Notes: generated by a model from the sequence alone, not told the origin. Shown: positions 1,692 to 60,420, numbered from the stretch's first letter. The stretch: 64,000 nt of DNA from a virus (IMGVR_UViG_3300033996_001333:3389-67388), one strand, 5' to 3'. Translations and numbers: made by a program.

Positions 1692-1739
1692 GGGACGGTT
1701 TTCCGCCCTTGTTTCTGCGCTGCGGATACGCTAAAGTTA
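1692..1739 (+). promoter_or_regulatory. intergenic hairpin-TATAGT element copy 1 (degenerate)
   Basis: GGGACGGTTTTCCGCCCTTGTTTCTGCGCTGCGGATACGCTAAAGT. GC hairpin plus T-tract plus second inverted repeat plus -10-like box. Confidence 0.5.
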
Positions 1740-1745
1740 TCCTGA

Positions 1746-2150
1746 ATGAAGCAGCAAAACACACAACCAACTCCAACCGACACAAAACAGATGAAAAAAG
1801 CTATTTACAAGTTCTTCTTCGATTGCGGACGAATGGGCGAGCTTGAGGGAATTTTCGTTGCCGAACCTCAAGAAGTCAAAAGGTTGATCGATAGCGGGAA
1901 AGAACTTTACTTCGGTGAAGTTCTCGGAAAGCACAGCGAAATTTCCGGAGTTGTCTCCGTGGAAAATTTCATCTTCGTAACAGATGAGGAAGAAATTGTA
2001 AACTTCTTCGAGATTCACGAGATGGCAACGGGCATTAACCCGCTTAGTTACTTCGAAGAAGAGGGTGCTGAGGATGACATTAATGAAGAGGACAGTGGTG
2101 GCGACGTTCTAAGCGAGGACCATTCTTTTGAGGGCTTCCCGTGGAACTAA
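1746..2150 (+). CDS. hypothetical acidic protein
   Basis: 134 aa with Glu/Asp-rich C-terminus. Follows element copy 1. Confidence 0.45.
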   Translation: MKQQNTQPTPTDTKQMKKAIYKFFFDCGRMGELEGIFVAEPQEVKRLIDSGKELYFGEVLGKHSEISGVVSVENFIFVTDEEEIVNFFEIHEMATGINPLSYFEEEGAEDDINEEDSGGDVLSEDHSFEGFPWN

Positions 2151-2365
2151 TCAACACTAAACTGATCGACAAGCTAAGGTCCGTAGCCTCGAAGCGCCAC
2201 CTTTTAGACCGAATGGACGAGCAGGGGGCATATGACTTTGACCTGAGCAACATAGACAGGGTGGACGACGCCTTTGACAGTGGATGCAAAGTCGGAGAGA
2301 TTTATTTTGCACGAGAACTTTGCACACTATTACGCATAGAGTACACAATTGAGTCCGACGACTGA
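2141..2365 (+). CDS. hypothetical protein
   Basis: 74 aa ORF. Start overlaps the upstream stop. Confidence 0.4.
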   Translation: MELINTKLIDKLRSVASKRHLLDRMDEQGAYDFDLSNIDRVDDAFDSGCKVGEIYFARELCTLLRIEYTIESDD

Positions 2366-2379
2366 CTTACTGACCCCCA

Positions 2380-2730
2380 ATGAGCAAACCCCAAACAACC
2401 TTCAGCAACCTCTTAAGCAAACTTCAAGGGCTTAGCCTCAAGCAAACTGGTTACTGGGTTGACGACCTTCCGGAAGACATCTACGAAAACTTCTTCTACG
2501 ACACCAACTACGAAGTTGTGGCTAGGGACTTAGACCTTGATAGGCACAGGTGGTACGAAATTTCCACAGAAGTGATCAAGATTCACGGGTCTTTCCTTGG
2601 AATACGCCAAGTTACCCATATGAAGAACGAAAACGACAGTGTCGGAGACGCTAGCTTCGTGTATCAATTCTTTGAAATGCAGGAGAAAACAGTGACTTCC
2701 TACGAAAAGGTGCCAGGCAAATGCCCTTAA
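2380..2730 (+). CDS. hypothetical protein
   Basis: 116 aa ORF. Confidence 0.45.
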   Translation: MSKPQTTFSNLLSKLQGLSLKQTGYWVDDLPEDIYENFFYDTNYEVVARDLDLDRHRWYEISTEVIKIHGSFLGIRQVTHMKNENDSVGDASFVYQFFEMQEKTVTSYEKVPGKCP

Positions 2731-3065
2731 TTTACGTCTCGGCACCTTACAACGACCGCGACCCTACTGTTGTAAAGTTTCGTATGAACGCGGTGACTTA
2801 CGAACTCGCACACCTTGCATCGAAAGGGTTAGTGGCATTCTCGCCGTTGCTTATGCACTTTGCCCTGAGTTCAGGTATCGACTTGCCTACCGACTACAAA
2901 TTCTGGGAAAACCAGTGCCTAACGCTGCTGAGTAAGTCCGACGAGCTCTACGTCTTAACCTTACCTGGTTGGTGTGAGTCCACTGGAGTTCAGTCCGAGA
3001 TCTCTTTCGCACAGCTAAAGGGATTACCTTTCTCTCTCCACATTCCTGCGCTTCTAGGCGGTTAA
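2721..3065 (+). CDS. hypothetical protein
   Basis: 114 aa ORF overlapping the upstream gene by 10 nt. Confidence 0.45.
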   Translation: MPLIYVSAPYNDRDPTVVKFRMNAVTYELAHLASKGLVAFSPLLMHFALSSGIDLPTDYKFWENQCLTLLSKSDELYVLTLPGWCESTGVQSEISFAQLKGLPFSLHIPALLGG

Positions 3066-3130
3066 CCGTTTGCTCGGGGACGGTTTCCCGGCTTGGTTTC
3101 TCGAAAAGAAAGGGCTATAATACCTATAGC
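3061..3130 (+). promoter_or_regulatory. intergenic hairpin-TATAAT element copy 2
   Basis: GTTAACCGTTTGCTCGGGGACGGTTTCCCGGCTTGG...GGGCTATAATACCTATAGCCC. Double motif plus -10-like box. Confidence 0.55.
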
Positions 3131-3138
3131 CCAAACAA

Positions 3139-3154
3139 CCCCCCCCCCCCCCCC
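3139..3154 (+). repeat. C16 homopolymer tract in the EF-Ts leader
   Basis: 16 consecutive C between the -10-like box and the ATG at 3162. No SD sequence. Confidence 0.9.
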
Positions 3155-3161
3155 AAGTAAC

Positions 3162-3770
3162 ATGTCTTCCACCCCTCCAACAATCCTACAAGTTAAGTCC
3201 CTGCGAGAAAAGACCGGTGCGGGCCTGATTCTCTGCAAAGAAGCACTCATTTTTTCTGACAGTGATGAGGCCGGTGCGATCACGTGGCTGCGGCAGAAAG
3301 GAGTCGCCCTGGCTGACGGCAAGATCGGTCGGAGCGCACGAGAAGGTACTGTGGGCAGCTACATTCACACTGGCGGTAAGGTTGGAGTCCTTATCGAGGT
3401 CAACTGCGAAACGGACTTTGTGGCCAAGTCCGAACCCTTTCAGGAACTTGTTCGAAATCTTTCGATGCAAATTGCAGCGTGCCCCTCTGTGTGCCACGTT
3501 TCAATCTTTGATATCCCTGAGGAGACTCTCCTTGAGGAGACTCGGATTGAGTCCGGAAAGGCAGACCTTGCGAAGAAGCCCGAGGCAATTCGAAACAAGA
3601 TCGTTGAGGGTCGTGTGGCAAAGCGATTCAGAGAGCTGTCTCTCATGGACCAGCCCTACATCAAAGACAACTCAATGAGTATCGAAACATACGTGAAGAA
3701 CTTCGCTGCAATAGTTGGCGAAAACATCGTTGTGAAGCGATTCGTACGTTTTGTCCTCGGCAGCTCTTGA
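3162..3770 (+). CDS. tsf: translation elongation factor Ts (EF-Ts) homolog
   Basis: LREKTGAGLILCKEAL matches the EF-Ts N-terminal UBA-like motif (LRERTGAGMMDCKKAL). GKVGVLIEVNCETDFVAKSEPFQ matches the EF-Ts core (ILEVNCQTDFVAK). The C-terminus matches KPExI..KIVEGR...LSLLxQPFI. The track ORF 3093 has an N-terminal extension through the poly-C tract that is probably not translated. Confidence 0.8.
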   Translation: MSSTPPTILQVKSLREKTGAGLILCKEALIFSDSDEAGAITWLRQKGVALADGKIGRSAREGTVGSYIHTGGKVGVLIEVNCETDFVAKSEPFQELVRNLSMQIAACPSVCHVSIFDIPEETLLEETRIESGKADLAKKPEAIRNKIVEGRVAKRFRELSLMDQPYIKDNSMSIETYVKNFAAIVGENIVVKRFVRFVLGSS

Positions 3771-4260: not shown

Positions 4261-4354
4261 CCGATTAGCCCTTAGCGGGTTTCCCTGTCTTGTTCACGTT
4301 ACAAACACCCGCTACACTTAGTTATCATACTCCGAAAACAACCTGAGCTTAAGC

Positions 4355-6333: not shown

Positions 6334-6398
6334 GGCGGTTAACCGCTTGCTCCGGGGCGGTTTCCCGGCTTGCTTCTGCTCGGCAGAAACGGTATAGT
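6334..6398 (+). promoter_or_regulatory. intergenic element copy 3 (double motif)
   Basis: GGCGGTTAACCGCTTGCTCCGGGGCGGTTTCCCGGCTTGCTTCTGCTCGGCAGAAACGGTATAGT. Confidence 0.6.
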
Positions 6399-7847: not shown

Positions 7848-8037
7848 AGGGGACCTTGAAAAGTTGGTAGAAAATAGAGACATTCTGAGCTACTCTTACT
7901 CGGAGGTTAAAGGCTGCCAGGGTTCACATGGCGGAGAATACCTGCAACTCATTTTACCGTCCGGAGCTTGCATAGGGATAGGCTCCTGGTCAACACCCAC
8001 CCCTGAAACGAGTGGGCTAAGCATAGAAGTTTATTAG
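7831..8037 (+). CDS. hypothetical protein
   Basis: 68 aa ORF ending just before the ncRNA region. Confidence 0.35.
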   Translation: MPLMIEGDLEKLVENRDILSYSYSEVKGCQGSHGGEYLQLILPSGACIGIGSWSTPTPETSGLSIEVY

Positions 8038-8039
8038 GC

Positions 8040-8400
8040 GGACAGTCCTACCACACGACATTAAACTGGGTGTAGCTCTGGAAGATAGTGCCCTATACAG
8101 GGGTTCGAATCCCCTCACCTCCATTTGAGAACGTGACCGTCCCTTCTTCAACCTTCCGACTTACTGAGAAGGCAGGGTCACTGTGGGTTAAACTCCCACC
8201 TCTAGTCAAGGGGGTGCCATGGTCTCGCTAGGGTAAAGATGTCGCCTGAGTGAAAGCCGCTTGCATAAGCACAAAATAGACGCTAACAACATCGTCAAAT
8301 TCGAGAGGATTGCCGTTGCCGTTTGAGCAACCGCACTCTGACTCATAACTCGGGGGTTTCGGCCCCCTTACACCGCCAACTTTCCTAGCCAAAACAGCAC
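8040..8400 (+). ncRNA. ssrA: tmRNA (ssrA), circularly permuted two-piece type
   Basis: ORF-free 390-nt region. Acceptor piece: T-arm AGGGGTTCGAATCCCCT plus 3' acceptor strand CACCTCC at 8099-8123. Coding piece: GGGGGTGCCATGGTCTCGCTAGGG at 8210 resembles the tmRNA 5' end GGGGCUG.AAUGGUUUCGACG, and pairs with the 3' strand including a G3-U wobble. The tag ORF at 8282-8326, GCT AAC AAC ATC GTC AAA TTC GAG AGG ATT GCC GTT GCC GTT TGA, encodes (A)ANNIVKFERIAVAV*. Compare the Synechocystis tag ANNIVPFARKAAPVAA. Confidence 0.65.
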
Positions 8401-8428
8401 CCTACACTCCAACCCACGCTGAAACACT

Positions 8429-9868: not shown

Positions 9869-10730
9869 AATGACAACTTTCGACAAATGCCTCGGAGCCT
9901 TTATTGGCCTTGCGATCGGTGACGCGATGGGTGCGCCAGTGGAGTTCTCTCCACCGGGGACCTTTGAGACCGTCACAGGTTACCGAGCAGGGGGGCCCTT
10001 TAATCTGCCGTCAGGCTACTGGACGGACGACACATCGCAGGCTGTTTGCCTTGCCGAGTCTTTTATTCATTGCAATGGGCAGATCAATCTTGGAGACCAA
10101 ATGCGTCGGTACTCCAACTGGTACGAGTACGGAAGGAACAGCTCAACAGGTGTCTGTTTTGACATCGGCAATGGAACACTTCGTGCAATTGAGACTTTTC
10201 TCGTTGAGGGGTCTTTGAGTCTCTATCCGGAGAATTCGAAAGGAAACGGGTCTTTGATGCGTTTATCCCCCGTTTCTATTGTGTACCACAAGTCAAGTGA
10301 GCAGGACGCTGTAGCAGCGTGTGACGCGTCATCATCAACAACCCATGGCCACTTGGCATCCGACCTATGCAAAGATCTCGGTCGTTTGCTGCACCAATAC
10401 TTAAATGGCACGGGGGGAAAACCTGAAGTCTCGCCGGAGGGAATTGAAAATTCCGGGTACGCACCGAAGTCCTTAAACGCCGCACTCTACCACTTTGGGT
10501 CAACTTCGTCCTTTGAAGAGGCCATCCTGCAGGCTGTGAACTACGGGGACGACTCAGACACGGTTGCTGCGATTACGGGGCAGCTAGCAGGTGCTTACTA
10601 CGGTTACAAGGCTATTCCTAAGCGATGGGTTTCGGGGTTGCACGACAGCGAAAGACTTTTGCTCATAGCGAGCACTTTGTACGACCTTTCGTTTGGGACG
10701 GTTTCCCCCCTTGTTTCTACTCTGAAATAA
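9869..10730 (+). CDS. ADP-ribosylglycohydrolase (ARH/DraG family)
   Basis: GAFIGLAIGDAMGAPVEF, YWTDDTSQ, GNGSLMRLSPV and YGDDSDTVAAITGQLAGAYYG are ARH family signatures. Start taken at MTTFDK. Confidence 0.75.
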
Positions 10731-13552: not shown

Positions 13553-13671
13553 TGGGCGGTTTCCCGAACTTTACCTTAGGCTCTTTACGAGTTATACTGG
13601 GGTCCAGCCCGAAACGGCTTCAGCTAGGAACACCTTCGCTGGGCCAACGGGCACTGAGCCGTGGTTGCGCA

Positions 13672-15724: not shown

Positions 15725-15771
15725 GGGGACGGTTTCCCGCCCTTGTTTCTGCATCGCAGAAACGCTATATT
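15725..15771 (+). promoter_or_regulatory. intergenic element copy 5 (canonical)
   Basis: GGGGACGGTTTCCCGCCCTTGTTTCTGCATCGCAGAAACGCTATAT. Confidence 0.6.
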
Positions 15772-16440: not shown

Positions 16441-16488
16441 CGGCGGGAAACCGTCCTTTACCCTCGCCCCTAAACAAGCTATAGTAAG
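16441..16488 (+). promoter_or_regulatory. intergenic element copy 6 (GC hairpin in inverted orientation)
   Basis: CGGCGGGAAACCGTCC...CTAAACAAGCTATAGT. Confidence 0.45.
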
Positions 16489-18960: not shown

Positions 18961-19059
18961 GCTTGGTACAAGGGGGTTTACACCCCCTGTTCCGGGGTAT
19001 AATTCTGAAAGAACTGACGTTCCCTCGTGCGATGGGGAAACACTTAAATCACCAAGGTC

Positions 19060-20492: not shown

Positions 20493-20504
20493 CCCACATA
20501 CTCG

Positions 20505-20565
20505 ATTAACCGTTTGCTTTAGGGCGGTTCTCCGCCTTGTTTATGCTCCGAAAAAGCGGTAAAAT
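20505..20565 (+). promoter_or_regulatory. intergenic element copy 7 (double motif)
   Basis: GATTAACCGTTTGCTTTAGGGCGGTTCTCCGCCTTGTTTATGCTCCGAAAAAGCGGTAAAAT. Confidence 0.5.
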
Positions 20566-21447: not shown

Positions 21448-21454
21448 CTTCACC

Positions 21455-21781
21455 ATGAACTTTCGAACCGCATGGCTTCGCTTTTACTACTCGGTAAAAG
21501 ACTCTTTCGATGTGTTGGAGTGTCCTGACGACTACGATCACAGTGAGTCAGCCTTACCTCCACATGTTGACTGCCGGTTTATCCACGTCAACTCGAGATC
21601 AGGTGCGCTAGGGAACTTTCGGTGGGTAAACTCAAACCCTTCCTCAGAGGGCTGTGTCAATACCTGGGGACGAATCATCTGGGCTGGACGATGGTCCCTG
21701 TTTGTTGTACCAGGTCGAATTCCCCGGTCCACGAGAAGCAAAAGACTCGAAGAGCTTCGGGCTCCGCGTTGGGGCGGTTAA
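21455..21781 (+). CDS. hypothetical protein
   Basis: Internal ATG (MNFRTAW). The 3' end runs into the intergenic element and contains the 24-mer shared with 3838-3862. Confidence 0.4.
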   Translation: MNFRTAWLRFYYSVKDSFDVLECPDDYDHSESALPPHVDCRFIHVNSRSGALGNFRWVNSNPSSEGCVNTWGRIIWAGRWSLFVVPGRIPRSTRSKRLEELRAPRWGG

Positions 21782-21839
21782 CCGTTTGCTCCGGGGCGGT
21801 TTCCCCGCCTTGCCTTTCCGAGAGGAAAGCGGTATACTT
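21772..21839 (+). promoter_or_regulatory. intergenic element copy 8 (double motif)
   Basis: GGCGGTTAACCGTTTGCTCCGGGGCGGTTTCCCCGCCTTGCCTTTCCGAGAGGAAAGCGGTATACT. Confidence 0.6.
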
Positions 21840-22946: not shown

Positions 22947-22993
22947 AGGGCGGTTACCCCCCCTTGTTTCTGCGCCGCAGAAACGCTATAGTA
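22947..22993 (+). promoter_or_regulatory. intergenic element copy 9 (canonical)
   Basis: GGGCGGTTACCCCCCCTTGTTTCTGCGCCGCAGAAACGCTATAGT. Confidence 0.6.
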
Positions 22994-26050: not shown

Positions 26051-26533
26051 ATGGCAAAGTCCCCTCACTACATCAACTCCAAAGGTGAAGAAATCGACTT
26101 CACAGTTCAAGTAGCCACTCGTCCGAATCTCCGAGACGGAATTTCGTATATGTTCCAATACCGTGGAAAGTCCATTCTTGAGCAGATGTTTGACAAGTGC
26201 GAAGTTGACTCTTCCGTAGAAGAATTTGACCTTGAGTACCCCGAACGATGGGCGAACTTGCTGGAGCTGAGGGCCATTCCTGATCGAATGCTGGTGTGCT
26301 TCCCCAACCTTAGAAAGGTATTCGTTCAAACCCACTCTGTTTACCTTATTCAGAGCGTGCATAGTGGCCACGTTTTTGTCGAACAACTAATAGATGCTGA
26401 CGGTAATAAAATAACTTACTACGACGAGGGAAACGCCACAGACTTGACAAAGCGATATTGCCCACCTAATCGAGAGTGTAAGGGACTCATGGTTGTGTCT
26501 CCCACTTCAGCTCAGTACATTCCAGGGGGTTGA
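26051..26533 (+). CDS. hypothetical protein
   Basis: 160 aa ORF. Confidence 0.5.
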   Translation: MAKSPHYINSKGEEIDFTVQVATRPNLRDGISYMFQYRGKSILEQMFDKCEVDSSVEEFDLEYPERWANLLELRAIPDRMLVCFPNLRKVFVQTHSVYLIQSVHSGHVFVEQLIDADGNKITYYDEGNATDLTKRYCPPNRECKGLMVVSPTSAQYIPGG

Positions 26534-26598
26534 GGGGGAAACCGCCCCGGAAAACGGCGGTTTCCACCCTTGTTTTCTTCGGAAAACAACGCTATAAT
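26534..26598 (+). promoter_or_regulatory. intergenic element copy 11 (double motif, first unit inverted)
   Basis: GGGGGAAACCGCCCCGGAAAACGGCGGTTTCCACCCTTGTTTTCTTCGGAAAACAACGCTATAAT. Confidence 0.55.
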
Positions 26599-28035: not shown

Positions 28036-28404
28036 TTGAAAATGTCAGAGATCAAAGTTGTAAACAAGTACCACTTGGGGCGAGAGACGAAGCCCCCCGA
28101 GGGTGTTGTACGCCGAGCAATTCACCGTGGAACTGCCCTTGGTAATCCGCTGCCGATGAAGGACTCTAGCCAGGTCGAGAGAGACCGCGTCTGCGATGGT
28201 TACGAAGAGTGGTTGCCTCCAAGGCTACTTCAGAAAGGTGCCGAACTTGCGCAGTTTCAAGAGTTGCTCGCGATTGTTCAAGATCCGAGCGTGAAGTCCC
28301 TGGAGCTAATTTGCTTTTGTGCGCCAAAGCGTTGTCACGGAGACACTGTGAAGAGACTACTTGAGCTTTCCTCTGCCCCTCTGCATGGTCCTGAGGACCC
28401 ATAG
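28036..28404 (+). CDS. DUF4326-like protein
   Basis: LICFCAPKRCHGDTV resembles the DUF4326 C.CAP..CHGD motif. Confidence 0.45.
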   Translation: MKMSEIKVVNKYHLGRETKPPEGVVRRAIHRGTALGNPLPMKDSSQVERDRVCDGYEEWLPPRLLQKGAELAQFQELLAIVQDPSVKSLELICFCAPKRCHGDTVKRLLELSSAPLHGPEDP

Positions 28405-28447
28405 GGCGGTTTCCCCCTTGCCCTTTTTCGTAATAAAAGGTATAGTA
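28404..28447 (+). promoter_or_regulatory. intergenic element copy 12 (short)
   Basis: GGGCGGTTTCCCCCTTGCCCTTTTTCGTAATAAAAGGTATAGT. Confidence 0.5.
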
Positions 28448-32985: not shown

Positions 32986-33225
32986 ATGGATTCCACTAAC
33001 GCATCCGATTTGCTTACAACGCTTGAAAACCGTGTCTTGCACGAGAACGAGAAGCGAGGGGAAGCAGAGGCGAAAGCCGAACGTTTCGCTCACGCACTCG
33101 TAACCGTTTTGGATGGAGTGCAAGACCACGAACTGCAGATCATGACGGGTCTGTGTGAAGCCGACTGCAACGAGATAGCTCGCACTCGCTCTGAGGCTGC
33201 CACTCTTGTTCGTGTGCGTCTCTGA
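32986..33225 (+). CDS. hypothetical protein
   Basis: 79 aa ORF. Confidence 0.4.
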   Translation: MDSTNASDLLTTLENRVLHENEKRGEAEAKAERFAHALVTVLDGVQDHELQIMTGLCEADCNEIARTRSEAATLVRVRL

Positions 33226-33316
33226 GGGGGTAACCGGTTGCCCTGGGGCGGTTTACCCCCTTGCCCTTCCGAAGGGAAAACGGTATAGTTACTTCAGTCC
33301 ACTTGAGCAACCATGT
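33226..33316 (+). promoter_or_regulatory. intergenic element copy 14 plus conserved leader
   Basis: GGGGGTAACCGGTTGCCCTGGGGCGGTTTACCCCCTTGCCCTTCCGAAGGGAAAACGGTATAGTTACTTCAGTCCAC...GCAACCATG. Leader shared with 36876, 37186 and 51340. Confidence 0.55.
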
Positions 33317-35947: not shown

Positions 35948-36838
35948 ATGACAGTCACACTGAAAGCCACTCATCTTGTAAACGAGGGAAGCTACCTTGT
36001 TCAGAGGAGCCGTCACAATGGCCTTGAGGTAGATGGAATCCCTATAACAACAAACACTTTCGTTGTGTCGGATCTATCGACCATCCTCAATGTTAACGTA
36101 ATTCCCGCCACAATTACGCATTACACGGGAGAGAATGGCGACACGATGCCAGTTGAATCTTTTAGGAGGGAGAAAGAATACCTTAGCTCCAAAGGTTTTC
36201 CGGAAGAGGGGTACTCAAGCTGCTACATCTTTGAGAATCTCGACGACGAATTTACCTATAAGCGTTTTATCCAAAGGTGGAAGCCGGTGTACGGCGTGTC
36301 ACGAACGGTAAAGGAGCCTGTCACAGTTGAATTGACGGAAGTTCGGACCGACTCCGGCGACCCAGACATTCAGTCTATGTGGAACTCTCCGCAATGCGCA
36401 ACCAAGGCACACCTATACACCTTAGACCGCAATGCGATTTCTCTCCGAGACTTCAAAGCTTGTTGCGAAGCTCATGGCTTAGACTACAATATCCCGTCCC
36501 ACAGCGGTATTCGATTTGCAAAGATCGACGGGAAGTACGCCGGGTTTGACGACATGGACTTTTCCAAGTCTCCCCCTTTCATTGGTACTCTCGACCAGTG
36601 CAAAGCAGAAAAGTTGTCTCTTTACAAGAGGGTGACGAATACTATCAAACTATACATTGCGAAGTATAGGACGAAACCCGCACTGAAAAACGCTGCAGAG
36701 GTTCTATCCGATCTAGACACCATTTGGGTCTTGGTACAGAAAGCCACACCCATGAAAGCCTCTCGCGACAATCACACTGCCGCACTCGCCGCAATCAGTA
36801 AGCTGCAGACCTCGGTTCGTGAGGAGTTGTTGGACTAA
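35948..36838 (+). CDS. hypothetical protein
   Basis: 296 aa ORF. Confidence 0.5.
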   Translation: MTVTLKATHLVNEGSYLVQRSRHNGLEVDGIPITTNTFVVSDLSTILNVNVIPATITHYTGENGDTMPVESFRREKEYLSSKGFPEEGYSSCYIFENLDDEFTYKRFIQRWKPVYGVSRTVKEPVTVELTEVRTDSGDPDIQSMWNSPQCATKAHLYTLDRNAISLRDFKACCEAHGLDYNIPSHSGIRFAKIDGKYAGFDDMDFSKSPPFIGTLDQCKAEKLSLYKRVTNTIKLYIAKYRTKPALKNAAEVLSDLDTIWVLVQKATPMKASRDNHTAALAAISKLQTSVREELLD

Positions 36839-36907
36839 GGCGGTTCACCCCCTTGCCTTCCCGGCAGGAAAGCGATATAGTTACTTCAGTCCACGCACGC
36901 AACCATG
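36838..36907 (+). promoter_or_regulatory. intergenic element copy 16 plus conserved leader
   Basis: GGCGGTTCACCCCCTTGCCTTCCCGGCAGGAAAGCGATATAGTTACTTCAGTCCACGCACGCAACCATG. Confidence 0.55.
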
Positions 36908-37148: not shown

Positions 37149-37219
37149 GGGGCGGTTTACCCCCTTTCTTTCTCGAAGAGAAAGCGGTATAGTTACTTCA
37201 GTCCACGCACGCAACCATG
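37149..37219 (+). promoter_or_regulatory. intergenic element copy 17 plus conserved leader
   Basis: GGGGCGGTTTACCCCCTTTCTTTCTCGAAGAGAAAGCGGTATAGTTACTTCAGTCCACGCACGCAACCATG. Confidence 0.55.
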
Positions 37220-38600: not shown

Positions 38601-38666
38601 GGGCGGTTTCCCGGTTATCCTGGGGCGGTTTCCCCGTTTGTTTTCCAGACGGAAAACGCTATAGTA
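38601..38666 (+). promoter_or_regulatory. intergenic element copy 18 (double motif)
   Basis: GGGCGGTTTCCCGGTTATCCTGGGGCGGTTTCCCCGTTTGTTTTCCAGACGGAAAACGCTATAGT. Confidence 0.55.
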
Positions 38667-40299: not shown

Positions 40300-40343
40300 G
40301 GGCGGTTTCCCGCCCTTGTTTCTCCGGGGGCAAAACGCTATAA
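40300..40343 (+). promoter_or_regulatory. intergenic element copy 19 (canonical)
   Basis: GGGCGGTTTCCCGCCCTTGTTTCTCCGGGGGCAAAACGCTATAAT. Confidence 0.6.
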
Positions 40344-40376
40344 TAAATGAGTCAGTTCACCCCGCACTAAACCTAA

Positions 40377-42216: not shown

Positions 42217-42262
42217 GGGGGCGGTTTCCACCCTTTGCTTTTCGGGGTAAATGGGCTATACT
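42217..42262 (+). promoter_or_regulatory. intergenic element copy 20
   Basis: GGGGGCGGTTTCCACCCTTTGCTTTTCGGGGTAAATGGGCTATACT. Confidence 0.5.
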
Positions 42263-42638: not shown

Positions 42639-42682
42639 GGGCGGTTTCCCGCCCTTGCCTTTCAGACGGAAAAACGCTATAG
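42639..42682 (+). promoter_or_regulatory. intergenic element copy 21 (canonical)
   Basis: GGGCGGTTTCCCGCCCTTGCCTTTCAGACGGAAAAACGCTATAGT. Confidence 0.6.
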
Positions 42683-42689
42683 TTATATC

Positions 42690-45231: not shown

Positions 45232-45283
45232 GGGTAAGGACGGGAAACCGCCCCTTGCTTCCCCGTAGCAAACACGCTAGTAT
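45232..45283 (+). promoter_or_regulatory. intergenic element copy 22 (GC hairpin inverted)
   Basis: GGGGGTAAGGACGGGAAACCGCCCCTTGCTTCCCCGTAGCAAACACGCTAGTATT. Confidence 0.5.
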
Positions 45284-48318: not shown

Positions 48319-48507
48319 ATGTTTGAGAATCTCGCAGTTTCGTTAATGACAGCCCAGGGTCTCCTCCTCGGGTTGAAATTAACGGGGCAAATAACCTGGC
48401 CATGGCTCTCAGTGTTTAGCCCAATCGTAATCTTAGGCTCTGTGTCCATTTTGTCACTCATTCTGCTTCTGCTACTGTCGAATTTGTATGCAAGGTCAAC
48501 CAAGTGA
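48319..48507 (+). CDS. small membrane protein (paralog of the previous)
   Basis: VSLMTAQGLLLGLKLTGQITWPWLSVFSPIVILGS resembles ITLKVAGQVSWPWLTVLSPTLVPIFLLGS in the preceding ORF. Confidence 0.4.
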   Translation: MFENLAVSLMTAQGLLLGLKLTGQITWPWLSVFSPIVILGSVSILSLILLLLLSNLYARSTK

Positions 48508-48760
48508 ATCGCATAGCGAGTGGGCTCCCTTTTCCTCTTCTTTGCGGGAGGAGTACGACAGTCTTGTAGAAAACTTACGAAGTCGTGGCCTAGACAATGT
48601 TATTTCTTGGGAGAACTTTCTAAGAGACTTCACACCCTTAGTTGGACACGAAATACCAACCGAGTACCGCCATTACGACGTAAGAGTGTCGGAAGATGGT
48701 GAAGTTATCGAGTTGTACAAGGGGACTCGACGAGTAACAAATTTGAGCCAGGGCGGTTAA
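48488..48760 (+). CDS. hypothetical protein
   Basis: 90 aa ORF. Confidence 0.4.
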   Translation: MQGQPSESHSEWAPFSSSLREEYDSLVENLRSRGLDNVISWENFLRDFTPLVGHEIPTEYRHYDVRVSEDGEVIELYKGTRRVTNLSQGG

Positions 48761-48808
48761 CCGCCCCTAGCGGTTCGGTTTTCACCCTTTCCTTCGCTCA
48801 GCAAAACC
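48751..48808 (+). promoter_or_regulatory. intergenic element copy 23 (double motif)
   Basis: GGGCGGTTAACCGCCCCTAGCGGTTCGGTTTTCACCCTTTCCTTCGCTCAGCAAAACCGCTATAGT. Confidence 0.55.
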
Positions 48809-48822
48809 GCTATAGTTCACGT

Positions 48823-49272: not shown

Positions 49273-49399
49273 GTGCCGTGCGGGATCTCTGCTTGAGTCC
49301 GTTTACCCCTAGCACTTCCAACCTATGATACGGATGTGGAGCTCAAGGTTCCACTCCTCGCCCCCTTAACCTCCACCCAGCAAAGCGGTGCGAAAAAAC

Positions 49400-49985: not shown

Positions 49986-50097
49986 GGGACCGTAGCTCAA
50001 CTGGTAGAGCACGAAAAGTTATCTTGACAAAGATACATCAGCAATTAAATTACCTCTTTTAAAGGCGCGGTTGCAGGTTCGAGTCCTGCCGGTCCCA
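49986..50097 (+). tRNA. tRNA-like gene with about 40-nt insertion in the anticodon region
   Basis: Acceptor GGGACCG/CGGTCCC, TA, D-arm GCTC-AACTGGTA-GAGC, T-arm GCAGG-TTCGAGT-CCTGC. 61 nt lie between the D-arm and the T-arm where 21-22 are expected. Confidence 0.4.
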
Positions 50098-50942: not shown

Positions 50943-50987
50943 AGGGCGGTTTACCCCCTTGCCTGTCTGAAAGAAAGGCGGTATGAT
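50943..50987 (+). promoter_or_regulatory. intergenic element copy 24
   Basis: GGGCGGTTTACCCCCTTGCCTGTCTGAAAGAAAGGCGGTATGAT. Confidence 0.5.
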
Positions 50988-51010
50988 TATAGGGTAGCCG
51001 AGCAAGTCCA

Positions 51011-51289
51011 ATGGAGCAGCCCACAAATCTCTCTCCCGAAGCACAAGCAATTCGTGCTCAAGCCATCAATGCGTATTGGAGCAGGGCTAGAACCGAAGTT
51101 GATCTGATTGTAGCAGCCGCTCTTCGCGCTGCCGCTGACCAGGTTGTTCCCGAGGATTACGCTTCTTTCACTGGGAATACAGAGTGGGACAATGGTCTAG
51201 AAGCAAGGAACGACTCTGTCCGTGAGTCCCTCCTTGGTATTGCCGCTGAGCTAGAGAGTCGATTCACTAGCTCGATCCAAGAGCGGTAA
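51011..51289 (+). CDS. hypothetical protein
   Basis: 92 aa ORF. Confidence 0.45.
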   Translation: MEQPTNLSPEAQAIRAQAINAYWSRARTEVDLIVAAALRAAADQVVPEDYASFTGNTEWDNGLEARNDSVRESLLGIAAELESRFTSSIQER

Positions 51290-51379
51290 ACCGTTTTCCT
51301 CGGGCGGTTTACCCCCCTTTCCTTTCCGACAGGAAAGCGGTATAGTTATTTCAGTCCAAGCAACCCCTCACAAACCATG
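51285..51379 (+). promoter_or_regulatory. intergenic element copy 25 plus conserved leader
   Basis: GGTAAACCGTTTTCCTCGGGCGGTTTACCCCCCTTTCCTTTCCGACAGGAAAGCGGTATAGTTATTTCAGTCCAAGCAACCCCTCACAAACCATG. Confidence 0.55.
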
Positions 51380-52228: not shown

Positions 52229-52277
52229 GGGGGCGGTCTCCCGCCTTGCCCCCCTGCCGTGCACATGCTAAAGTTAG
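52229..52277 (+). promoter_or_regulatory. intergenic element copy 26 (degenerate)
   Basis: GGGGGCGGTCTCCCGCCTTGCCCCCCTGCCGTGCACATGCTAAAGT. Confidence 0.4.
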
Positions 52278-54580: not shown

Positions 54581-54652
54581 GCCCTGGTAGCTCAGTGGAA
54601 GAGCACTGTCCTTCTAAGACACCGGTCGTGGGTTCGAATCCCCCTCAGGGCG
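54581..54652 (+). tRNA. tRNA-Arg (anticodon UCU)
   Basis: GCCCTGG-TA-GCTC-AGTGGAA-GAGC-A-CTGTC-CTTCTAA-GACAC-CGGTC-GTGGG-TTCGAAT-CCCCC-TCAGGGC-G. 72 nt, one mismatch each in the anticodon and T stems. Confidence 0.6.
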
Positions 54653-54903: not shown

Positions 54904-54992
54904 GGGCGTGTGGTGTACGGTGCACAGGGACCCTTATACAGTCCTCTCCGGCAGATTACCGGCTAGTTAGGGTTCGACTCCCTACACGCCTA
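54904..54992 (+). tRNA. class II-like tRNA (long variable arm), anticodon uncertain (possibly UAU)
   Basis: Acceptor GGGCGTG/CACGCCT, T-arm AGGG-TTCGACT-CCCT, variable hairpin CCGG-CAGATTA-CCGG. The anticodon stem GGACC/AGTCC has a 31-39 mismatch. 89 nt. Confidence 0.45.
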
Positions 54993-55082
54993 CTTAGTTT
55001 CAAGTCCTCGAAAACTCGTTAAAGAACACACCCACAGGTCATATCCGGTGAACGACACAGGAGTGGCCCACCACGGTGACAA

Positions 55083-55167
55083 GGAAGAGTGGCTGAGCGG
55101 CCGAAAGCAGCAGCTTCGAACACTGTAGAGGGTTAAACCTCCGGGGGTTCAAATCCCCCCTCTTCCG
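55083..55167 (+). tRNA. tRNA-Ser (anticodon CGA)
   Basis: GGAAGAG-TG-GCTGAGCGGCCGAAAGC, a class II D-arm aligning to E. coli tRNA-Ser. Anticodon loop TTCGAAC, variable arm GAGGGTTAAACCTC, T-arm GGGGG-TTCAAAT-CCCCC, acceptor CTCTTCC. Confidence 0.6.
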
Positions 55168-57881: not shown

Positions 57882-57887
57882 AGTTGG

Positions 57888-57950
57888 CCGGTAAACCGCT
57901 TGTCCTTGGGCGGTTTCCCGCCTTGCCCTGACGAGGAATAACGGTATAAT
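57888..57950 (+). promoter_or_regulatory. intergenic element copy 28 (double motif)
   Basis: CCGGTAAACCGCTTGTCCTTGGGCGGTTTCCCGCCTTGCCCTGACGAGGAATAACGGTATAAT. Confidence 0.55.
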
Positions 57951-58421: not shown

Positions 58422-58425
58422 CGAA

Positions 58426-59133
58426 ATGATAACTTACGACGAAAAGTTACACCCAGGTGACGTAGTTGCCCTTGGTGACATTCACGCGACCTGGACTCTT
58501 TTCGAACAATTTCTAAATTGGGTGAAAGGGTCTCAAGCCACCGTCATACTTTTAGGTGACATGATTGATCGTGGTAGGGGCGACCTGAAAGTTTTGGAGT
58601 ATACGAAAAAGCTCCTCGACGATCCGGAAAGTTGGGGGCTTCAAGCCTTTTATGCCCTGATGGGGAACCACGAGAGGATGTTTCTTGACGCCCTTGACGA
58701 CCCAAGTAGTTACGCTCTGTGGATTCAAAACGGCGGAAACTATGACCAGGTGGGTGAGATGGAAAGAAAGCATAAGGAGTGGATTCGGGAGCTGCCCTTA
58801 TACATGACAATTGCGGACACTCTCTTCATTCACGCGGGGATCTACCCCGGTCACGACCCTGCAAAGCTCATTGTCGATGGAAGGGGGGAGGCACTGCTAT
58901 GGATTCGTCAACCTTTCTTGACCTATGGGCCGGAATTCGAAGGGTGGAACCCGAGACTGAAGAAAGTTGTTCACGGGCATACTCCCACCAACTTCGAAGA
59001 GCCCCCACAGGACTATATCCCGATTGTGATGGGGCAACGCGTAAATATTGACACATGCGCATACTCCAAGCCAAAGGGTCGCCTAACCGCTTACAACGTT
59101 ACTCGAAATACTTTTCACCAGTTCTCACGGTAA
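58426..59133 (+). CDS. calcineurin-like metallophosphoesterase (lambda phosphatase/Pnkp phosphoesterase-like)
   Basis: VVALGDIHATW...ILLGDMIDRGRG...MGNHE matches GDxHG / GDxxDRG / GNHE. Confidence 0.65.
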   Translation: MITYDEKLHPGDVVALGDIHATWTLFEQFLNWVKGSQATVILLGDMIDRGRGDLKVLEYTKKLLDDPESWGLQAFYALMGNHERMFLDALDDPSSYALWIQNGGNYDQVGEMERKHKEWIRELPLYMTIADTLFIHAGIYPGHDPAKLIVDGRGEALLWIRQPFLTYGPEFEGWNPRLKKVVHGHTPTNFEEPPQDYIPIVMGQRVNIDTCAYSKPKGRLTAYNVTRNTFHQFSR

Positions 59134-59176
59134 CCTTACAAGGACTAGTATAGAGCCAAGTTCCGACACCAAAACA

Positions 59177-60061
59177 ATGAAACTGCTTCTCGTAGACACA
59201 TCTGCACTATTTTATCGCTCTCGATCAGCTCTCTGTCGAGCTATGGGTGAAATGGTTACGAGCTATGGAGCTCCAGTAACTGGGACTTATGGGTTTTGCA
59301 ACGCCTTACTTGCCGTGATGGCTCAGTACGAGTACGATTGCGTAGTTCCTTGTACAGATAAAGGTGGAAACTTTCGCAAGAAAGAATCCGGTACTTATAA
59401 GGCGAACCGAGAAAAAGCCAGCGTTGAGCACTACTCCGACCTTTCCCTCCTGGTTGAAGACGTCCTTCCAGCTCTTGGCTTTTCGCCAGTGGGTGCCCAG
59501 GGTTTTGAGGCGGACGATGTTGTAGCCCATATTTCTCGTAACTCTCCTGGATATAGTGAAGTTCACATTTTGACTTGCGACAAGGACTTGCTTCAGCTTG
59601 TCAACGACAGAGTAAAGGTACTGCTTTTCAACTCAGCTAAGAAAATGGAGCTGGTTGACATTGAGGGGGTTAAAGGGCACTTCGGTGTTCCCCCCTCAGA
59701 CGTCAAGTTCTTCAAGGCTTTGTCTGGGGACTCCTCAGATAACATATCAGGTGTCTCCGGCGTTGGCCCGAAAACCGCTGTGAAGATAATCCAAGAGTGC
59801 CACACCAGCGGTACAAACTCAGAGCTGTCGCTCACCGATCGAATCGCGTTCCATCCTAAGGTGGTTTCAACTGCGTCCACATTCTTTAGTAACCTTCGCT
59901 TGGTCACTCTTGAGAACGACGTCCCCGACATGTCGTGGTACGCCTCTTCACCGCCGTCTGAACAGAGTGTAAAAGCAGTCTTTGAGGGCTTAGAGTTCAA
60001 GTCATACTTAAAGCCAGCACGGTTGAGCAAGATTCTGGAAACACTCAAGGTTGTTTCGTAG
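59177..60061 (+). CDS. 5'-3' exonuclease / flap endonuclease (T4 RNase H-like)
   Basis: MKLLLVDTSALFYRS, FEADDVVAHI and ILTCDKDLLQLV align to T4 RNase H. H3TH motif GVSGVGPKTAVKII. Confidence 0.7.
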   Translation: MKLLLVDTSALFYRSRSALCRAMGEMVTSYGAPVTGTYGFCNALLAVMAQYEYDCVVPCTDKGGNFRKKESGTYKANREKASVEHYSDLSLLVEDVLPALGFSPVGAQGFEADDVVAHISRNSPGYSEVHILTCDKDLLQLVNDRVKVLLFNSAKKMELVDIEGVKGHFGVPPSDVKFFKALSGDSSDNISGVSGVGPKTAVKIIQECHTSGTNSELSLTDRIAFHPKVVSTASTFFSNLRLVTLENDVPDMSWYASSPPSEQSVKAVFEGLEFKSYLKPARLSKILETLKVVS

Positions 60062-60338
60062 GACGAATAACTACCGATCACACCTTCGGACCATGAAATA
60101 CCCACGTGTCCGCCCCAGACTCACTTACCTCCGCATCCTTGGAAATATTGCGTTGGTAGTTGGACAATTTGTTTTGCTTTTCTTGGACCGCAAGGTGGGC
60201 CTATTAATTCTGATTACAGGGAGCACTCTGAGCCTTCCATTCTTTGTAAAGAAAAAGCAGTGGGATGTGGTAGCTGTCATCGTAGTAGGAATTACCCTGA
60301 ACGTCTTTGGGCTAATACACAATCCAGTCCCTAACTAG
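60051..60338 (+). CDS. membrane protein
   Basis: Three hydrophobic segments. 95 aa. Confidence 0.4.
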   Translation: MFRRTNNYRSHLRTMKYPRVRPRLTYLRILGNIALVVGQFVLLFLDRKVGLLILITGSTLSLPFFVKKKQWDVVAVIVVGITLNVFGLIHNPVPN

Positions 60339-60353
60339 TCCTTGTGGGAGAGT

Positions 60354-60420
60354 GGGCGGTTAGCCCTCCTTCATGGGGCGGTTTTCGCCCTTTGTTTCTG
60401 CCTCGCAGAAACGGTATAGT
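60354..60420 (+). promoter_or_regulatory. intergenic element copy 29 (double motif)
   Basis: GGGCGGTTAGCCCTCCTTCATGGGGCGGTTTTCGCCCTTTGTTTCTGCCTCGCAGAAACGGTATAGT. Confidence 0.6.

Follow-up and report, generated by a model that had tools for sequence, protein, structure and literature searches.

The closest known kind of element to the one described here is the PeSL (promoter-early stem-loop), known from the T4-like phages RB49/phi1, T4/PST and KVP40/nt-1 (Arbiol et al. 2010, PMC2839356; Comeau et al. 2014, PMC4122927), and it is the only experimentally characterised class with this architecture. In nt-1/KVP40, a PeSL reads A3-4G3-loop-C3T3-4 followed by TTGYVH-N17-TAWWAT. We analysed a 64,000-nucleotide stretch of DNA (the window) from an uncultured cyanophage, in which 30-31 copies of a composite intergenic unit of 45-65 bp precede gene blocks. 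All the copies are on the + strand, and they span positions 1693 to 60420. As in PeSLs, a putative sigma70-type early promoter with a 17-bp spacer directly follows a G(n)-loop-C(n) stem-loop, many copies in direct orientation are scattered among small accessory genes and ORFans, partial units consist of the stem-loop and -35 only, and indels between close relatives have their junctions inside the elements. Promoter activity, terminator activity and mini-circles have been measured for PeSLs. The window elements also differ from PeSLs in lacking an AT-rich upstream region and in having a stem-loop whose loop and left arm are conserved in sequence. What is new relative to PeSLs is the non-T4 lineage, a covarying hairpin inside the promoter spacer, a second dyad at a phased distance of 22 bp, a lack of Shine-Dalgarno sequences, and predicted leaderless starts, with about a quarter of the window-type copies placing ATG at the predicted start site.

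The window phage is related to the Aokuangvirus S-CBWM1 and has relatives of up to 277 kb. Its DNA polymerase is polymerase-gamma-like and is 57% identical to that of Synechococcus phage S-CBWM1. This cultured relative carries 17 homologous elements, of which we found no earlier description in the literature that could be searched. Fifteen of the 17 lie in the first 41 kb, among small genes and tRNAs, none lies in the structural modules, and one stands directly upstream of a phage sigma-factor gene. As in the window, a dyad (GGGGCGG-TAAA/GAAA-CCGCCC) abuts the -35, the spacer is 17 bp, the -10 is of the form TAnnnT, some copies have tandem dyads 21-22 bp apart, and the elements are concentrated in the early small-gene/tRNA region. 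The S-CBWM1 elements differ in their -35 (TTTACA) and -10 (TAAGCT or TAAAGT), in the lack of a consistent spacer palindrome, in a longer conserved upstream flank (CCTGGGGAGGGG), and in a loop that is mostly in the opposite orientation.

Results and discussion

A sequence-only reading of the window had described about 29 repeated intergenic units, and these prove to be real. A position matrix built from the copies, as that reading had proposed, identifies 31 + strand sites above a threshold of 12 bits, compared with a single site on the - strand. Likewise, CGSTATART is observed 13 times in the window against 0.55 expected, and GGGCGGTTTCCCGCCC with no more than 3 mismatches 29 times against 0.59 expected. 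The order within the unit is an optional distal dyad, a proximal dyad, a -35 hexamer, a 17-bp spacer and CG(C/G)TATAGT, which holds the -10 hexamer. All four originally described parts are present, with corrections needed to the dyad, the -35, the start distance and the distal unit. The statement that nearly every larger gap carries a copy was too strong, as about half to two thirds of the window gaps of at least 60 bp do so under a crude gene model, and some of the others are occupied by a tmRNA, by tRNAs or by degenerate copies. Most copies begin between -9 and +25 nt relative to the upstream stop codon. The copies in the window are as follows.

1693..1737, + strand, element: proximal dyad GGACGGTTTTCCGCCC, -35 TTGTTT, spacer palindrome, -10 TAAAGT; 32.9 bits
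3057..3121, + strand, element: distal dyad GGCGGTTAACCG, whose TAA terminates ORF 2721-3065, proximal dyad, -35, -10 TATAAT; upstream of an EF-Ts-like gene
6334..6398, + strand, element: both dyads (distal, proximal), spacer stem CTTCTGC/GCAGAAA, -10 TATAGT; 34.5 bits
10696..10738, + strand, weaker copy: -10 TATAAT; 18.8 bits
13554..13598, + strand, degenerate element: GGGCGGTTTCCCGAAC, -35 TTTACC, 17 bp, TATACT
15727..15771, + strand, element: 9-bp spacer hairpin (-10.2 kcal/mol), -10 TATATT
16441..16485, + strand, element: inverted-orientation dyad GGCGGGAAACCGTCC, -35 TTTACC, -10 TATAGT
20501..20565, + strand, element: degenerate distal unit, proximal dyad GGGCGGTTCTCCGCC, -10 TAAAAT
21773..21838, + strand, element: distal dyad, whose TAA terminates ORF 21401-21781, spacer stem CTTTCC/GGAAAG, -10 TATACT
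22948..22992, + strand, element nearest the consensus: 9-bp spacer hairpin, -10 TATAGT; 40.6 bits
23878..23944, + strand, element: distal dyad, -10 TATAAT, GTG at +7
26532..26598, + strand, element: inverted distal dyad, spacer stem TTTTC/GAAAA, -10 TATAAT
28404..28446, + strand, element: left partner in the recombination deleting 28423-30355 in relative L103
30356..30399, + strand, element: weak dyad, -10 TAAACT, ATG at +7; right partner in the deletion seen in L103
32895..32959, + strand, element: only an inverted distal dyad, 9-bp spacer hairpin, -10 TATACT
33225..33289, + strand, element: distal unit, spacer palindrome CCCTTC-C-GAAGGG, -10 TATAGT; 39.6 bits
35523..35565, + strand, element: spacer stem CTTTCC/GGAAAG, -10 TAAACT
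36838..36881, + strand, element: -10 TATAGT; leader paralogous to the leaders of copies 37193 and 33289
37150..37193, + strand, element: spacer stem TTTCTC/GAGAAA, -10 TATAGT
38601..38665, + strand, element: distal unit; the L001 orthologue has a different promoter core (conversion-like swap)
40300..40344, + strand, element: perfect dyad GGGCGGTTTCCCGCCC; L001 synteny break at the element's first base
42219..42262, + strand, element: -10 TATACT
42639..42683, + strand, element: perfect dyad, -10 TATAGT; ATG of a 245-aa ORF at +7, predicted leaderless
45238..45283, + strand, element: inverted dyad GGACGGGAAACCGCCC, poor -10 (TAGTAT)
48751..48816, + strand, element: perfect distal palindrome GGGCGGTTAACCGCCC, whose TAA terminates ORF 48488-48760, degenerate proximal dyad, ATG at +7
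50944..50987, + strand, element: left partner in the recombination deleting 50991-51301 in L070, L115 and L117
51282..51346, + strand, element: distal unit; right partner of the 50991-51301 deletion (L070, L115, L117)
52231..52274, + strand, weaker copy: -10 TAAAGT; 20.1 bits
55760..55803, + strand, element: -10 TATAAT
57887..57950, + strand, element: distal unit, -10 TATAAT; ATG of a 154-aa ORF at +7
60354..60420, + strand, element: distal unit, 9-bp spacer hairpin, -10 TATAGT

The composite pattern was found in 105 stretches on about 40 viral contigs, and in 596 Gb of bacterial genomes it was no more frequent than chance. Pooling the window with related viral contigs gave a set of 196 unique copies. 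We favor, at a probability of about 0.7, the reading that these are PeSL-type early cassettes in which a sigma70-type promoter is combined with an insulating dyad and with recombination between units. Each would be a self-contained early-expression unit of a lytic cyanophage. The location of the elements in S-CBWM1 points to early timing, as do the early-type genes in the window, which encode a T7 gp5.9-like RecBCD inhibitor, Pnkp, RNA ligases, NAMPT, PRPP synthetase and ADP-ribosylglycohydrolase. Each promoter would drive one to a few small genes, with roles in counter-defence, RNA repair and NAD salvage.

The downstream two thirds of the unit would make a strong sigma70-family promoter, and host RNA polymerase with the primary sigma factor most likely reads it directly after infection. 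The -35 hexamer is TTGYYT, and the distance from it to TATAGT is 17 bp in nearly every copy and 16 bp in a few. This hexamer is what had been described as CTTG plus a T-run, a sequence that exists and that we recast as a promoter part. Among the 196 pooled copies, 185 have G at -14 and 189 have a purine 7 nt after the -10. These signals bear out the sigma70 -10 that had been raised as an alternative, and on this geometry we classify the unit as a predicted sigma70-type promoter, not a T7-class one. The box had been said to end 10-25 nt before the start codon, which does not hold throughout, as the distance peaks sharply at +7 (6 intervening nt), with further peaks at +24/25 and +31/33. Counting only start codons that open an ORF of at least 40 codons, we observed one exactly at +7 in 54 of the 196 copies, 48 of them ATG. 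Leaderless mRNAs are therefore predicted for about a quarter of the cassettes, a feature overlooked earlier. Such promoters would initiate on the A of the ATG, while the others would yield short leaders without a Shine-Dalgarno sequence.

Upstream of the promoter, the dyad resembles an intrinsic (Rho-independent) terminator in that a G/C-rich dyad just past the upstream stop codon is followed by a U-rich stretch. The mean RNA folding energy of the dyad region is -8.9 kcal/mol, compared with -5.9 for shuffles, and 142 of the 196 pooled copies have 5-6 T in the 8 nt from the -35 onward. Unlike in intrinsic terminators, however, the stems are mostly short or mismatched, the U-tract has interruptions (UUGYYU), sequence is conserved in the loop and one arm, and the dyad is never without a promoter in the window. 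The hairpin described earlier is present as a dyad, with consensus GGGCGGTTT(C/A)CC(C/G)(C/G)C, but it is a perfect GGGCGG/CCGCCC in only 11 of 168 scorable copies. With the pairing register held fixed, which is approximate owing to C-run indels, 131 of the 168 have a C.C mismatch as the central pair. Few copies pass a generic terminator scan, and in most copies the dyad is a poor canonical terminator. The anatomy nonetheless fits the terminator-promoter cassette that had been proposed and its architecture matches that of PeSLs (PMC2839356, PMC4122927), by analogy with which the dyad, although imperfect in most copies, would most likely attenuate or terminate incoming transcription from the upstream cassette, so that each cassette would be insulated. 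The dyad abuts the -35 and is followed by the U-rich -35 and spacer.

A less likely alternative is that the dyads are operator or activator sites and not terminators. A dimeric protein, whether phage-encoded, virion-carried or from the host, would bind GGCGG-N4-CCGCC at sites that share one helix face and have their centres about 43.5 and 65.5 bp before the start, and would activate or later shut off the whole set of early promoters, or alternatively guide recombination between cassettes. The conserved part of the dyad is its left half and loop, GGGCGGTTT, and among orthologues the dyad core diverges as little as the -10 (3.4% each, the lowest value, compared with 5.9% overall and 12.8% in the spacer loop, the highest), while changes in one arm are uncompensated in the other. 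No gene end in the window carries the dyad by itself, and its loop and left arm are conserved like the -10, a pattern that sequence-specific recognition fits better than a simple hairpin does. The dyad also abuts the -35 in every copy, and does so in S-CBWM1, where the -35, spacer and -10 differ. The optional distal dyad, GGCGGTTAACCG, occurs in 12-13 of 30 window copies. It precedes the proximal dyad by exactly 22 bp in 54 of 83 pooled cases and by 22 ± 1 bp in 80, much as the tandem dyads of S-CBWM1 are spaced. The tandem transcription-factor sites proposed earlier may be real, given the conserved GGGCGGTTT and this phasing. The distal dyad is the extra half-unit that had been noted in about half of the copies, although only some distal units have the CTTGC tail then ascribed to it. 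Two HTH_3 proteins are encoded in the window, and the PeSL authors themselves speculated on a protein that binds the GGGG...CCCC motif. Against this, no candidate protein is linked to the site, an activator overlapping the -35 is not obviously needed where a good -35 is present, and the dyad serves either way round, is G/C-rich and precedes a U-rich tract, as terminator stems do. Moreover, the G(n)-loop-C(n) stem-loops of T4-like PeSLs terminate in reporter assays (PMC2839356). The two roles of the dyad can coexist.

As to the polymerase, it is rather unlikely that the host core enzyme reads the units with a phage-encoded sigma factor, which would make them middle-class instead of immediate-early and the dyad a part of the recognition element. 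The S-CBWM1 annotation includes two sigma factors, and the YYT end of the -35 and the G of TATAGT consistently depart from TTGACA/TATAAT. However, TTG, a 17-bp spacing, G at -14 and TATAnT, together with a purine at +7, are the hallmark of the primary sigma factors (group 1), the promoters serve early-type genes, and the small phage sigmas characterised so far (T4 gp55, SPO1 gp28 and gp34) recognise, to our knowledge, quite different motifs. Since one S-CBWM1 element precedes a sigma-factor gene, the element would lie upstream of sigma in any cascade. The suggested search for a single-subunit RNA polymerase or sigma-like factor found neither domain among the 136 window ORFs.

The cassettes also appear to be recombination points, which had been overlooked. 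Relative L103 is without window positions 28423-30355, and L070, L115 and L117 are without 50991-51301. At each junction a hybrid element is found, and orthologous copies show swaps of the promoter core or the dyad. Synteny breakpoints fall at elements in 8 of 59 cases, compared with 2.07 expected under a uniform null (p about 0.001), while a null restricted to non-coding DNA gives 7 of 25 against 15.6% (p about 0.08), a weak enrichment. The units are near-identical direct repeats, and phage recombination acting on pairs of them would therefore delete, insert and convert gene cassettes. That the repeats are mainly selfish or neutral scars of such events, short homologous linkers spread and homogenised by gene conversion, is unlikely. 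The hybrid junctions and core swaps do attest to frequent recombination and conversion, and the palindromes could be kept perfect by templated quasi-palindrome correction, a type of mutation established in T4 and E. coli, and not by selection for structure. Yet this reading accounts for the spread of copies and not for their promoter likeness. It is at odds with the strict + orientation, the placement just before ORFs with a start-codon peak at +7, the purifying selection exactly on the -35, -14, -10 and dyad-core positions, and the retention of the architecture in S-CBWM1 despite diverged sequence.

The 17-bp spacer often contains a covarying palindrome, with a stem of 5-9 bp and a loop of 3-4 nt. 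The early promoters of phage N4 are hairpins, and those of its virion RNA polymerase share with the units a short hairpin whose loop is 3 nt long. Promoters read by a single-subunit phage RNA polymerase in a structure-dependent way, either N4-like with recognition of the spacer hairpin or T7/SP6-like with a CTATAG core, as had been suggested from the likeness of TATAG to T7-class positions -4 to +1, are disfavoured and very improbable, given that no RNA polymerase domain was found in the window ORFs and no phage RNA polymerase is annotated in S-CBWM1, that the canonical -35/-10 includes a conserved TTG 17 bp upstream with no role in T7-class promoters, that the purine/ATG peak lies at +7 from TATAGT and not at the G of TATAG, and that the hairpin is missing in more than half of the copies and has its loop centre near -24, not -11.

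The cassette model that we favor gives the spacer hairpin no role. The covariation reported for this second inverted repeat holds statistically, although at least 5 contiguous pairs are formed in only 44% of the 196 pooled copies. Its score is 0.348, compared with 0.204 ± 0.011 in 500 shuffles, none of which reached 0.348, a statistic that kinship among copies can inflate. Likewise, 68% of cells pair, compared with 47-54% in slid registers.

A composite element repeated between genes

The composite intergenic repeat that the sequence-only reading had described is borne out by its frequency. The motif CGSTATART matches the window 13 times, on the + strand only, against an expectation of 0.55, and GGGCGGTTTCCCGCCC (three mismatches or fewer) matches 29 times against an expectation of 0.59. 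For a more sensitive count, we built a matrix of 32 columns from the copies, with the final base of the TATAGT box as anchor, and refined it by iteration; at a cut-off of 12 bits, it detects 31 sites on the + strand and 1 on the - strand. With one degenerate copy included, the window total is 30-31 units within positions 1693-60420, with a median distance of 1.9 kb between units. This corresponds to 30-31 copies per 60 kb, in a sequence in which the majority of ORFs have no Pfam match. Two or three further copies are decayed.

13554-13598: degenerate copy, added to the matrix sites
4274-4318: decayed copy
18970-19003: decayed copy
49301-49329: decayed copy

The elements begin about 0-25 nt 3' of the preceding stop codon, and an Rfam scan of the window revealed no known RNA family at them. 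In at least 4 cases, the TAA in the loop of the distal dyad (GGCGGT-TAA-CCG) is itself the stop codon of the upstream ORF (3063-3065, 21779-21781, 48758-48760 and 51287-51289), so that the cassette provides a stop codon to any gene joined to it.

Promoter core and predicted start sites

Aligned on the box, the unit consists of an optional distal dyad, a proximal dyad, TTG(Y)(Y)T, a 17-bp spacer, and CG(C/G) with TATAGT. We observed TTGYYT-N17-TATAGT in about 30 window copies and in a pooled set of 196 non-identical copies from the window and related viral contigs. TTG-N3 and TATAGT, with 17 bp between them, are spaced as in sigma70-family promoters. The pooled copies show three more features, none of which was in the matrix seed: in 185 of 196, a G 2 bases 5' of the -10 hexamer, which corresponds to -14 in an extended -10; in 189 of 196, a purine precisely 7 nt past the hexamer; and in 54 of 196 (with ATG in 48), a start codon at the same +7 position that opens an ORF of at least 40 codons. 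Sigma70-family promoters initiate about 7 nt past the -10 hexamer. From the geometry, the -14 G, the +7 purine and the +7 start codon, we thus take the 3' two thirds of the unit to be a promoter, likely of the sigma70 type (probability about 0.85). That it is read by the host polymerase with its primary sigma is probable as well, with somewhat less confidence in the identity of the sigma factor than in the promoter type. Generic promoter and terminator scans gave chance-level counts and caught only some of the elements, and they are uninformative for so degenerate a -35.

The predicted transcripts would be leaderless in about one quarter of cases, and the remainder would carry short A/C-rich leaders without Shine-Dalgarno sequences. 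Shine-Dalgarno-like tetramers precede 11.8% of window ORFs and are not enriched relative to random positions (16%). In the window ORF listing, the ORFs starting at 30406, 42690, 48823 and 57957 open at +7 of an element, and none of them has an upstream in-frame start. Three paralogous ORFs open with MEN... at +7 of the elements whose last bases are 48816, 57950 and 60420. At the last of these, the ATG at 60427 is out of frame with a long 145-aa ORF starting at 60423 (window 60420-60860), a conflict that a sequencing error, a frameshift or a recently changed start may explain.

Phased dyads upstream of the promoter

A G3CG2-loop-C-rich dyad adjoins the -35 in every copy. The consensus of this proximal dyad is (AA)GGGCGG-TTT(C/A)-CC(C/G)(C/G)C(TT), and that of the optional distal dyad is GGCGG-TTAA-CCG. 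Where both are present, the distal dyad lies 22 bp 5' of the proximal one in 54 of 83 cases and 21-23 bp from it in 80 of 83.

By analogy and position, a role of the dyad as a terminator or insulator is plausible, at a little under an even chance. The dyad has a mean RNA folding energy of -8.9 kcal/mol, compared with -5.9 kcal/mol in shuffles, with 108 of 196 copies at or below -8 kcal/mol, and a T-rich stretch (5-6 T in the 8 nt from the -35) follows it in 142 of 196 copies. Of about 20 elements in a 40-kb stretch, only 4-5 passed a generic terminator scan, and many stems are mismatched. A perfect six-pair dyad is found in only 11 of 168 copies; the central pair is C.C in 131 of 168, in a fixed register that is approximate owing to C-run indels; and changes such as GGACGG are uncompensated in the other arm. 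The left arm with the loop, GGGCGGTTT, diverges by 3.4% among orthologues, equal to the -10, while the right arm is C-rich only, and the dyad is found in both orientations (inverted at 16441 and 45238). This pattern of conservation fits a protein-binding site equally well, a role to which we would give rather better than one chance in three, and neither role precludes the other. Two ORFs with an HTH_3 (XRE-type) domain, found by a batch Pfam scan of 1-32267 that did not resolve their individual positions, are candidate dyad-binding regulators.

No dyad stands alone as a terminator in the window; a promoter or a proximal dyad is always adjacent. RNAfold joins the distal and proximal dyads of some copies into one long hairpin, but the complementarity of the loops (6, compared with 4.6 expected) is no more than expected, indicating that this hairpin is a by-product of two near-palindromes. 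Orthologues of several elements differ by a single C in the C-run of their proximal dyad (for example at window 10708-10713, 35535-35540, 36851-36855 and 37163-37167), which shifts the dyad by 1 bp relative to the -35; either slippage or an assembly artefact would produce this variation.

A covarying hairpin in the promoter spacer

Pairing within the spacer was evaluated in 150 distinct spacers, with 500 shuffles of the 3' partners. Paired cells amount to 68.4%; the figure is 58.1 ± 0.8% after shuffling of the 3' partners and 47-54% in slid registers. The covariation score is 0.348, compared with 0.204 ± 0.011 in the shuffles, none of which (0 of 500) reaches it, and 178 cells are changed on both sides, compared with 102 in the shuffles, although kinship of the copies inflates these statistics. 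A separate permutation test on the covariation agrees. At least 6-8 stem types occupy the same place in the spacer, among them TTTCTGC/GCAGAAA, CTTTCC/GGAAAG, TTTCTC/GAGAAA, TTTTC/GAAAA, CCCTTC/GAAGGG, TTTCGC(T)/(A)GCGAAA and TTTGC/GCAAA. The loop is the part of the unit that varies most among orthologues (12.8%, compared with 5.9% overall), and only 44% of copies have an uninterrupted stem of 5 pairs or more. A search for compensatory changes between orthologues yielded few informative substitutions. The strength of the spacer hairpin correlates neither with that of the dyad nor with the presence of the distal unit.

Judged by its covariation, the spacer hairpin is a real structural constraint. 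Candidate explanations are an RNA hairpin of read-through transcripts, whose U-rich 5' arm would double as the U-tract of a terminator; a DNA structure that modulates the promoter; and upkeep by quasi-palindrome-templated correction.

Phage lineage and the polymerase that probably reads the elements

Megablast of 16 kb of the window against 50,697 phage records gave no match, and the 45-nt consensus gave only chance matches to cultured phages. An exact-pattern scan recovered relatives with nucleotide identities of 92-95%; these are uncultured viral contigs, which reach 277 kb in length. In the 277-kb contig, a topoisomerase II gene adjoins a gene for a gamma-like DNA polymerase that is 57% identical to that of S-CBWM1, a cultured Synechococcus phage (Aokuangvirus), and 34% identical to that of S-TIM5. 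This polymerase matches only 11 phage records, all of them cyanophages outside the T4-like group (S-CBWM1, TIM5-like phages including S-TIM5, A-HIS1/A-HIS2 and Mic1), indicating that the phage is a large non-T4-like cyanophage. A T4-like phage, suspected from NAMPT, RnlA and a 62% match to Synechococcus phage B3, is ruled out by the same polymerase.

We located the composite pattern GGGCGGTTT-N25-28-CGSTATAGT in 105 stretches belonging to about 40 viral contigs, many of which have several copies. Its matches in bacterial and archaeal genomes (596 Gb) numbered only 44, all single and scattered over unrelated taxa, which is chance level. Thus, the element belongs to the phage clade and not to the host genome.

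The homologous unit of S-CBWM1 reads (CCTGGGGA)GGGGCGG-TAAA/GAAA-CCGCCC, followed by TTTACA, 17 bp and TAAGCT, TAAAGT or TATAGT, with tandem dyads 21-22 bp apart in some copies. Fifteen of its 17 units lie in the first 41 kb, a region of small genes and tRNAs upstream of the topoisomerase and polymerase, and 0 of 17 lie in structural modules; one unit is directly 5' of a phage sigma-factor gene, and another serves a minus-strand kinase gene. From this we infer both timing and enzyme: the distribution is that expected of early promoters read by the host holoenzyme, and phage sigma factors would take over later. The S-CBWM1 annotation contains two sigma factors and no RNA polymerase. Pfam searches found neither an RNA polymerase nor a sigma domain in the 136 window ORFs, and a search of related viral contigs for a sigma-factor homologue gave S-CBWM1 only.

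Within the window ORFs and the S-CBWM1 annotation, a scope smaller than this phage's whole genome, two other promoter classes are rejected. In N4-type promoters, a hairpin with a 5-7 bp stem has the centre of its 3-nt loop about 11 nt before the start, and a giant virion RNA polymerase reads them. Here the hairpin is present in less than half of the copies, its loop centre lies about 24 nt, not about 11 nt, from the predicted start, and no giant ORF was seen in the window. The T7/SP6-class single-subunit polymerase considered in the sequence-only reading fails in that the purine/ATG signal lies 7 nt past TATAGT, not at the G of TATAG, and no gene or domain for such a polymerase was found.

Recombination at the elements

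Alignment of the window with related viral loci revealed 59 distinct breakpoints, 8 of which lie within 10 bp of an element, compared with 2.07 expected at random positions (p about 0.001). The enrichment is weak when only non-coding positions are considered (7 of 25, compared with 15.6%; p about 0.08). The convincing evidence for recombination lies in the sequences themselves. Locus L103 lacks window 28423-30355 (three ORFs), and its junction joins the dyad of the element starting at 28404 to the promoter core of the element starting at 30356. Likewise, loci L070, L115 and L117 lack 50991-51301 (one ORF), and at their junction elements 50944 and 51302 are combined into a hybrid. Between orthologues, the promoter core or the dyad has been replaced wholesale by a version from another locus, as at 38665 in L001 (the 277-kb relative), 48816 in L056 and 30399 in L058. 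These hybrid junctions and swaps indicate that the direct-repeat cassettes mediate gain, loss and conversion of gene blocks; the junctions establish the cassettes as recombination substrates.

In the 277-kb relative, about 2.4 kb of unrelated sequence (L001 3393-5823, compared with window 39648-40299) replaces the 3' third of the RNA ligase gene region (window 39160-40281) and ends exactly at the first base of the element starting at 40300. This could be a mobile gene insertion or a cassette replacement.

Relation to the stem-loop cassettes of T4-like phages

Promoter-early stem-loop cassettes (PeSLs) were reported first from RB49/phi1 and then from T4/PST and KVP40/nt-1; they consist of a poly-G/poly-C stem-loop and, just 3' of it, a sigma70-like early promoter whose spacer is 17 bp, and are dense in hyperplastic regions of small accessory genes (PMC2839356, PMC4122927). 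'Half' units of stem-loop and -35 occur, deletions have crossovers inside the elements, and recombination between flanking elements yields excised mini-circles (PMC2839356, PMC4122927). The nt-1/KVP40 consensus, A3-4G3-loop-C3T3-4 with TTGYVH-N17-TAWWAT (PMC2839356, PMC4122927), is strikingly near that of the window. The window elements share with PeSLs a sigma70-like promoter with a 17-bp separation of -35 and -10, the G-rich/C-rich stem-loop directly 5' of it, many intergenic copies among small genes and ORFans, and crossovers inside elements between close relatives (two clean hybrid junctions). Thus, the terminator-promoter cassette of the sequence-only reading was essentially right in kind, given this PeSL-type architecture and behaviour. 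RB49 PeSLs showed promoter and terminator activity in lacZ fusions (PMC2839356), and such activities are predicted for the present elements.

There are also clear differences. PeSLs have so far been described from T4-like, Tevenvirinae-type genomes, whereas the window phage is not T4-like, and the T4-like cyanophage S-PM2 has no comparable density of them (PMC4503421). Unlike the PeSLs of T4-like phages, the window elements are G/C-rich upstream, with no AT-rich region there, and no Shine-Dalgarno sequence follows their promoters. They are further set apart in that about a quarter of them have their ATG at the start site, that the spacer holds a covarying hairpin, that a second dyad lies in phase with the first, and that the loop and left arm of the dyad are conserved in sequence. 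We conclude that the element is a PeSL-type mobile regulatory cassette with two unexplained additions, the spacer hairpin and the phased dyad. Such cassettes would be new for this lineage and host group, as far as the searchable literature goes: it contains no description of them in the S-CBWM1/TIM5 lineage (the S-TIM5 and S-CBWM1 genome papers lie outside it), and a TIM5-like genomics paper mentions neither promoters nor regulatory motifs.

The PeSL-type design of these large cyanophages, which form an unrelated lineage and have a cultured member in S-CBWM1, would mean that promoter/stem-loop cassettes that drive and shuffle accessory genes are not peculiar to T4-like phages. The elements also provide an early-promoter consensus that can be put to the test in a little-studied group of viruses of picocyanobacteria, and can serve as cassette-boundary marks for annotating counter-defence genes in metagenomic phage contigs. 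Leaderless mRNAs are predicted to be widespread in this phage, whose genes have no ribosome-binding sites. The spacer hairpin and the phased second dyad could show how early transcription is gated or cassettes are exchanged. It is a long shot that the two act jointly, with the phased, conserved dyads docking a dedicated phage protein and the covarying -35/-10 hairpin serving as a functional DNA or RNA structure. In such an arrangement, the protein may coordinate the whole early regulon or catalyse cassette exchange, and a cruciform or hairpin could tie the promoter to supercoiling or single-strandedness during genome entry; alternatively, the hairpin could be an RNA element deciding the fate of read-through transcripts. 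If true, this arrangement together with starts on ATG would constitute a new early-expression logic in hosts without Shine-Dalgarno use.

Other cargo of the phage

The window encodes NAMPT and PRPP synthetase, two RNA ligases and a Pnkp-like protein, a Ro/TROVE-like DUF2828 protein, an ADP-ribosylglycohydrolase, a T7 gp5.9-like RecBCD inhibitor, and an EF-Ts homologue, tRNAs and a permuted tmRNA.

3093-3770, + strand: EF-Ts ORF (Pfam EF_TS, 6e-30), served by the element at 3057-3121
8034-8417, + strand: permuted (two-piece) tmRNA (Rfam RF04321, 67.9 bits; ARAGORN tag peptide ANNIVKFERIAVAV)
49986-50097, + strand: 112-nt tRNA match (Rfam), uncalled by ARAGORN, possibly with an intron
54581-54652, + strand: tRNA-Arg(tct) (Rfam/ARAGORN)
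54904-54993, + strand: tRNA-Ile(tat) (Rfam/ARAGORN)
55083-55167, + strand: tRNA-Ser(cga) (Rfam/ARAGORN)

Permuted tmRNAs are typical of picocyanobacteria and alphaproteobacteria. The tmRNA with its tag and the absence of Shine-Dalgarno sequences presumably fit a picocyanobacterial host; the tmRNA, an unusual cargo for a phage, is a hint to that host. EF-Ts homologues are, to our knowledge, uncommon in phages, and the leader of the present one contains a run of 16 C (3139-3154). Relatives (L084:1199-2683, L097:7319-9079 and L066) carry adjacent genes for topoisomerase II and the polymerase-gamma-like DNA polymerase, and genes for a T4-type large terminase and a Tet/JBP-type dioxygenase, the latter pointing to possible hypermodification of DNA bases.
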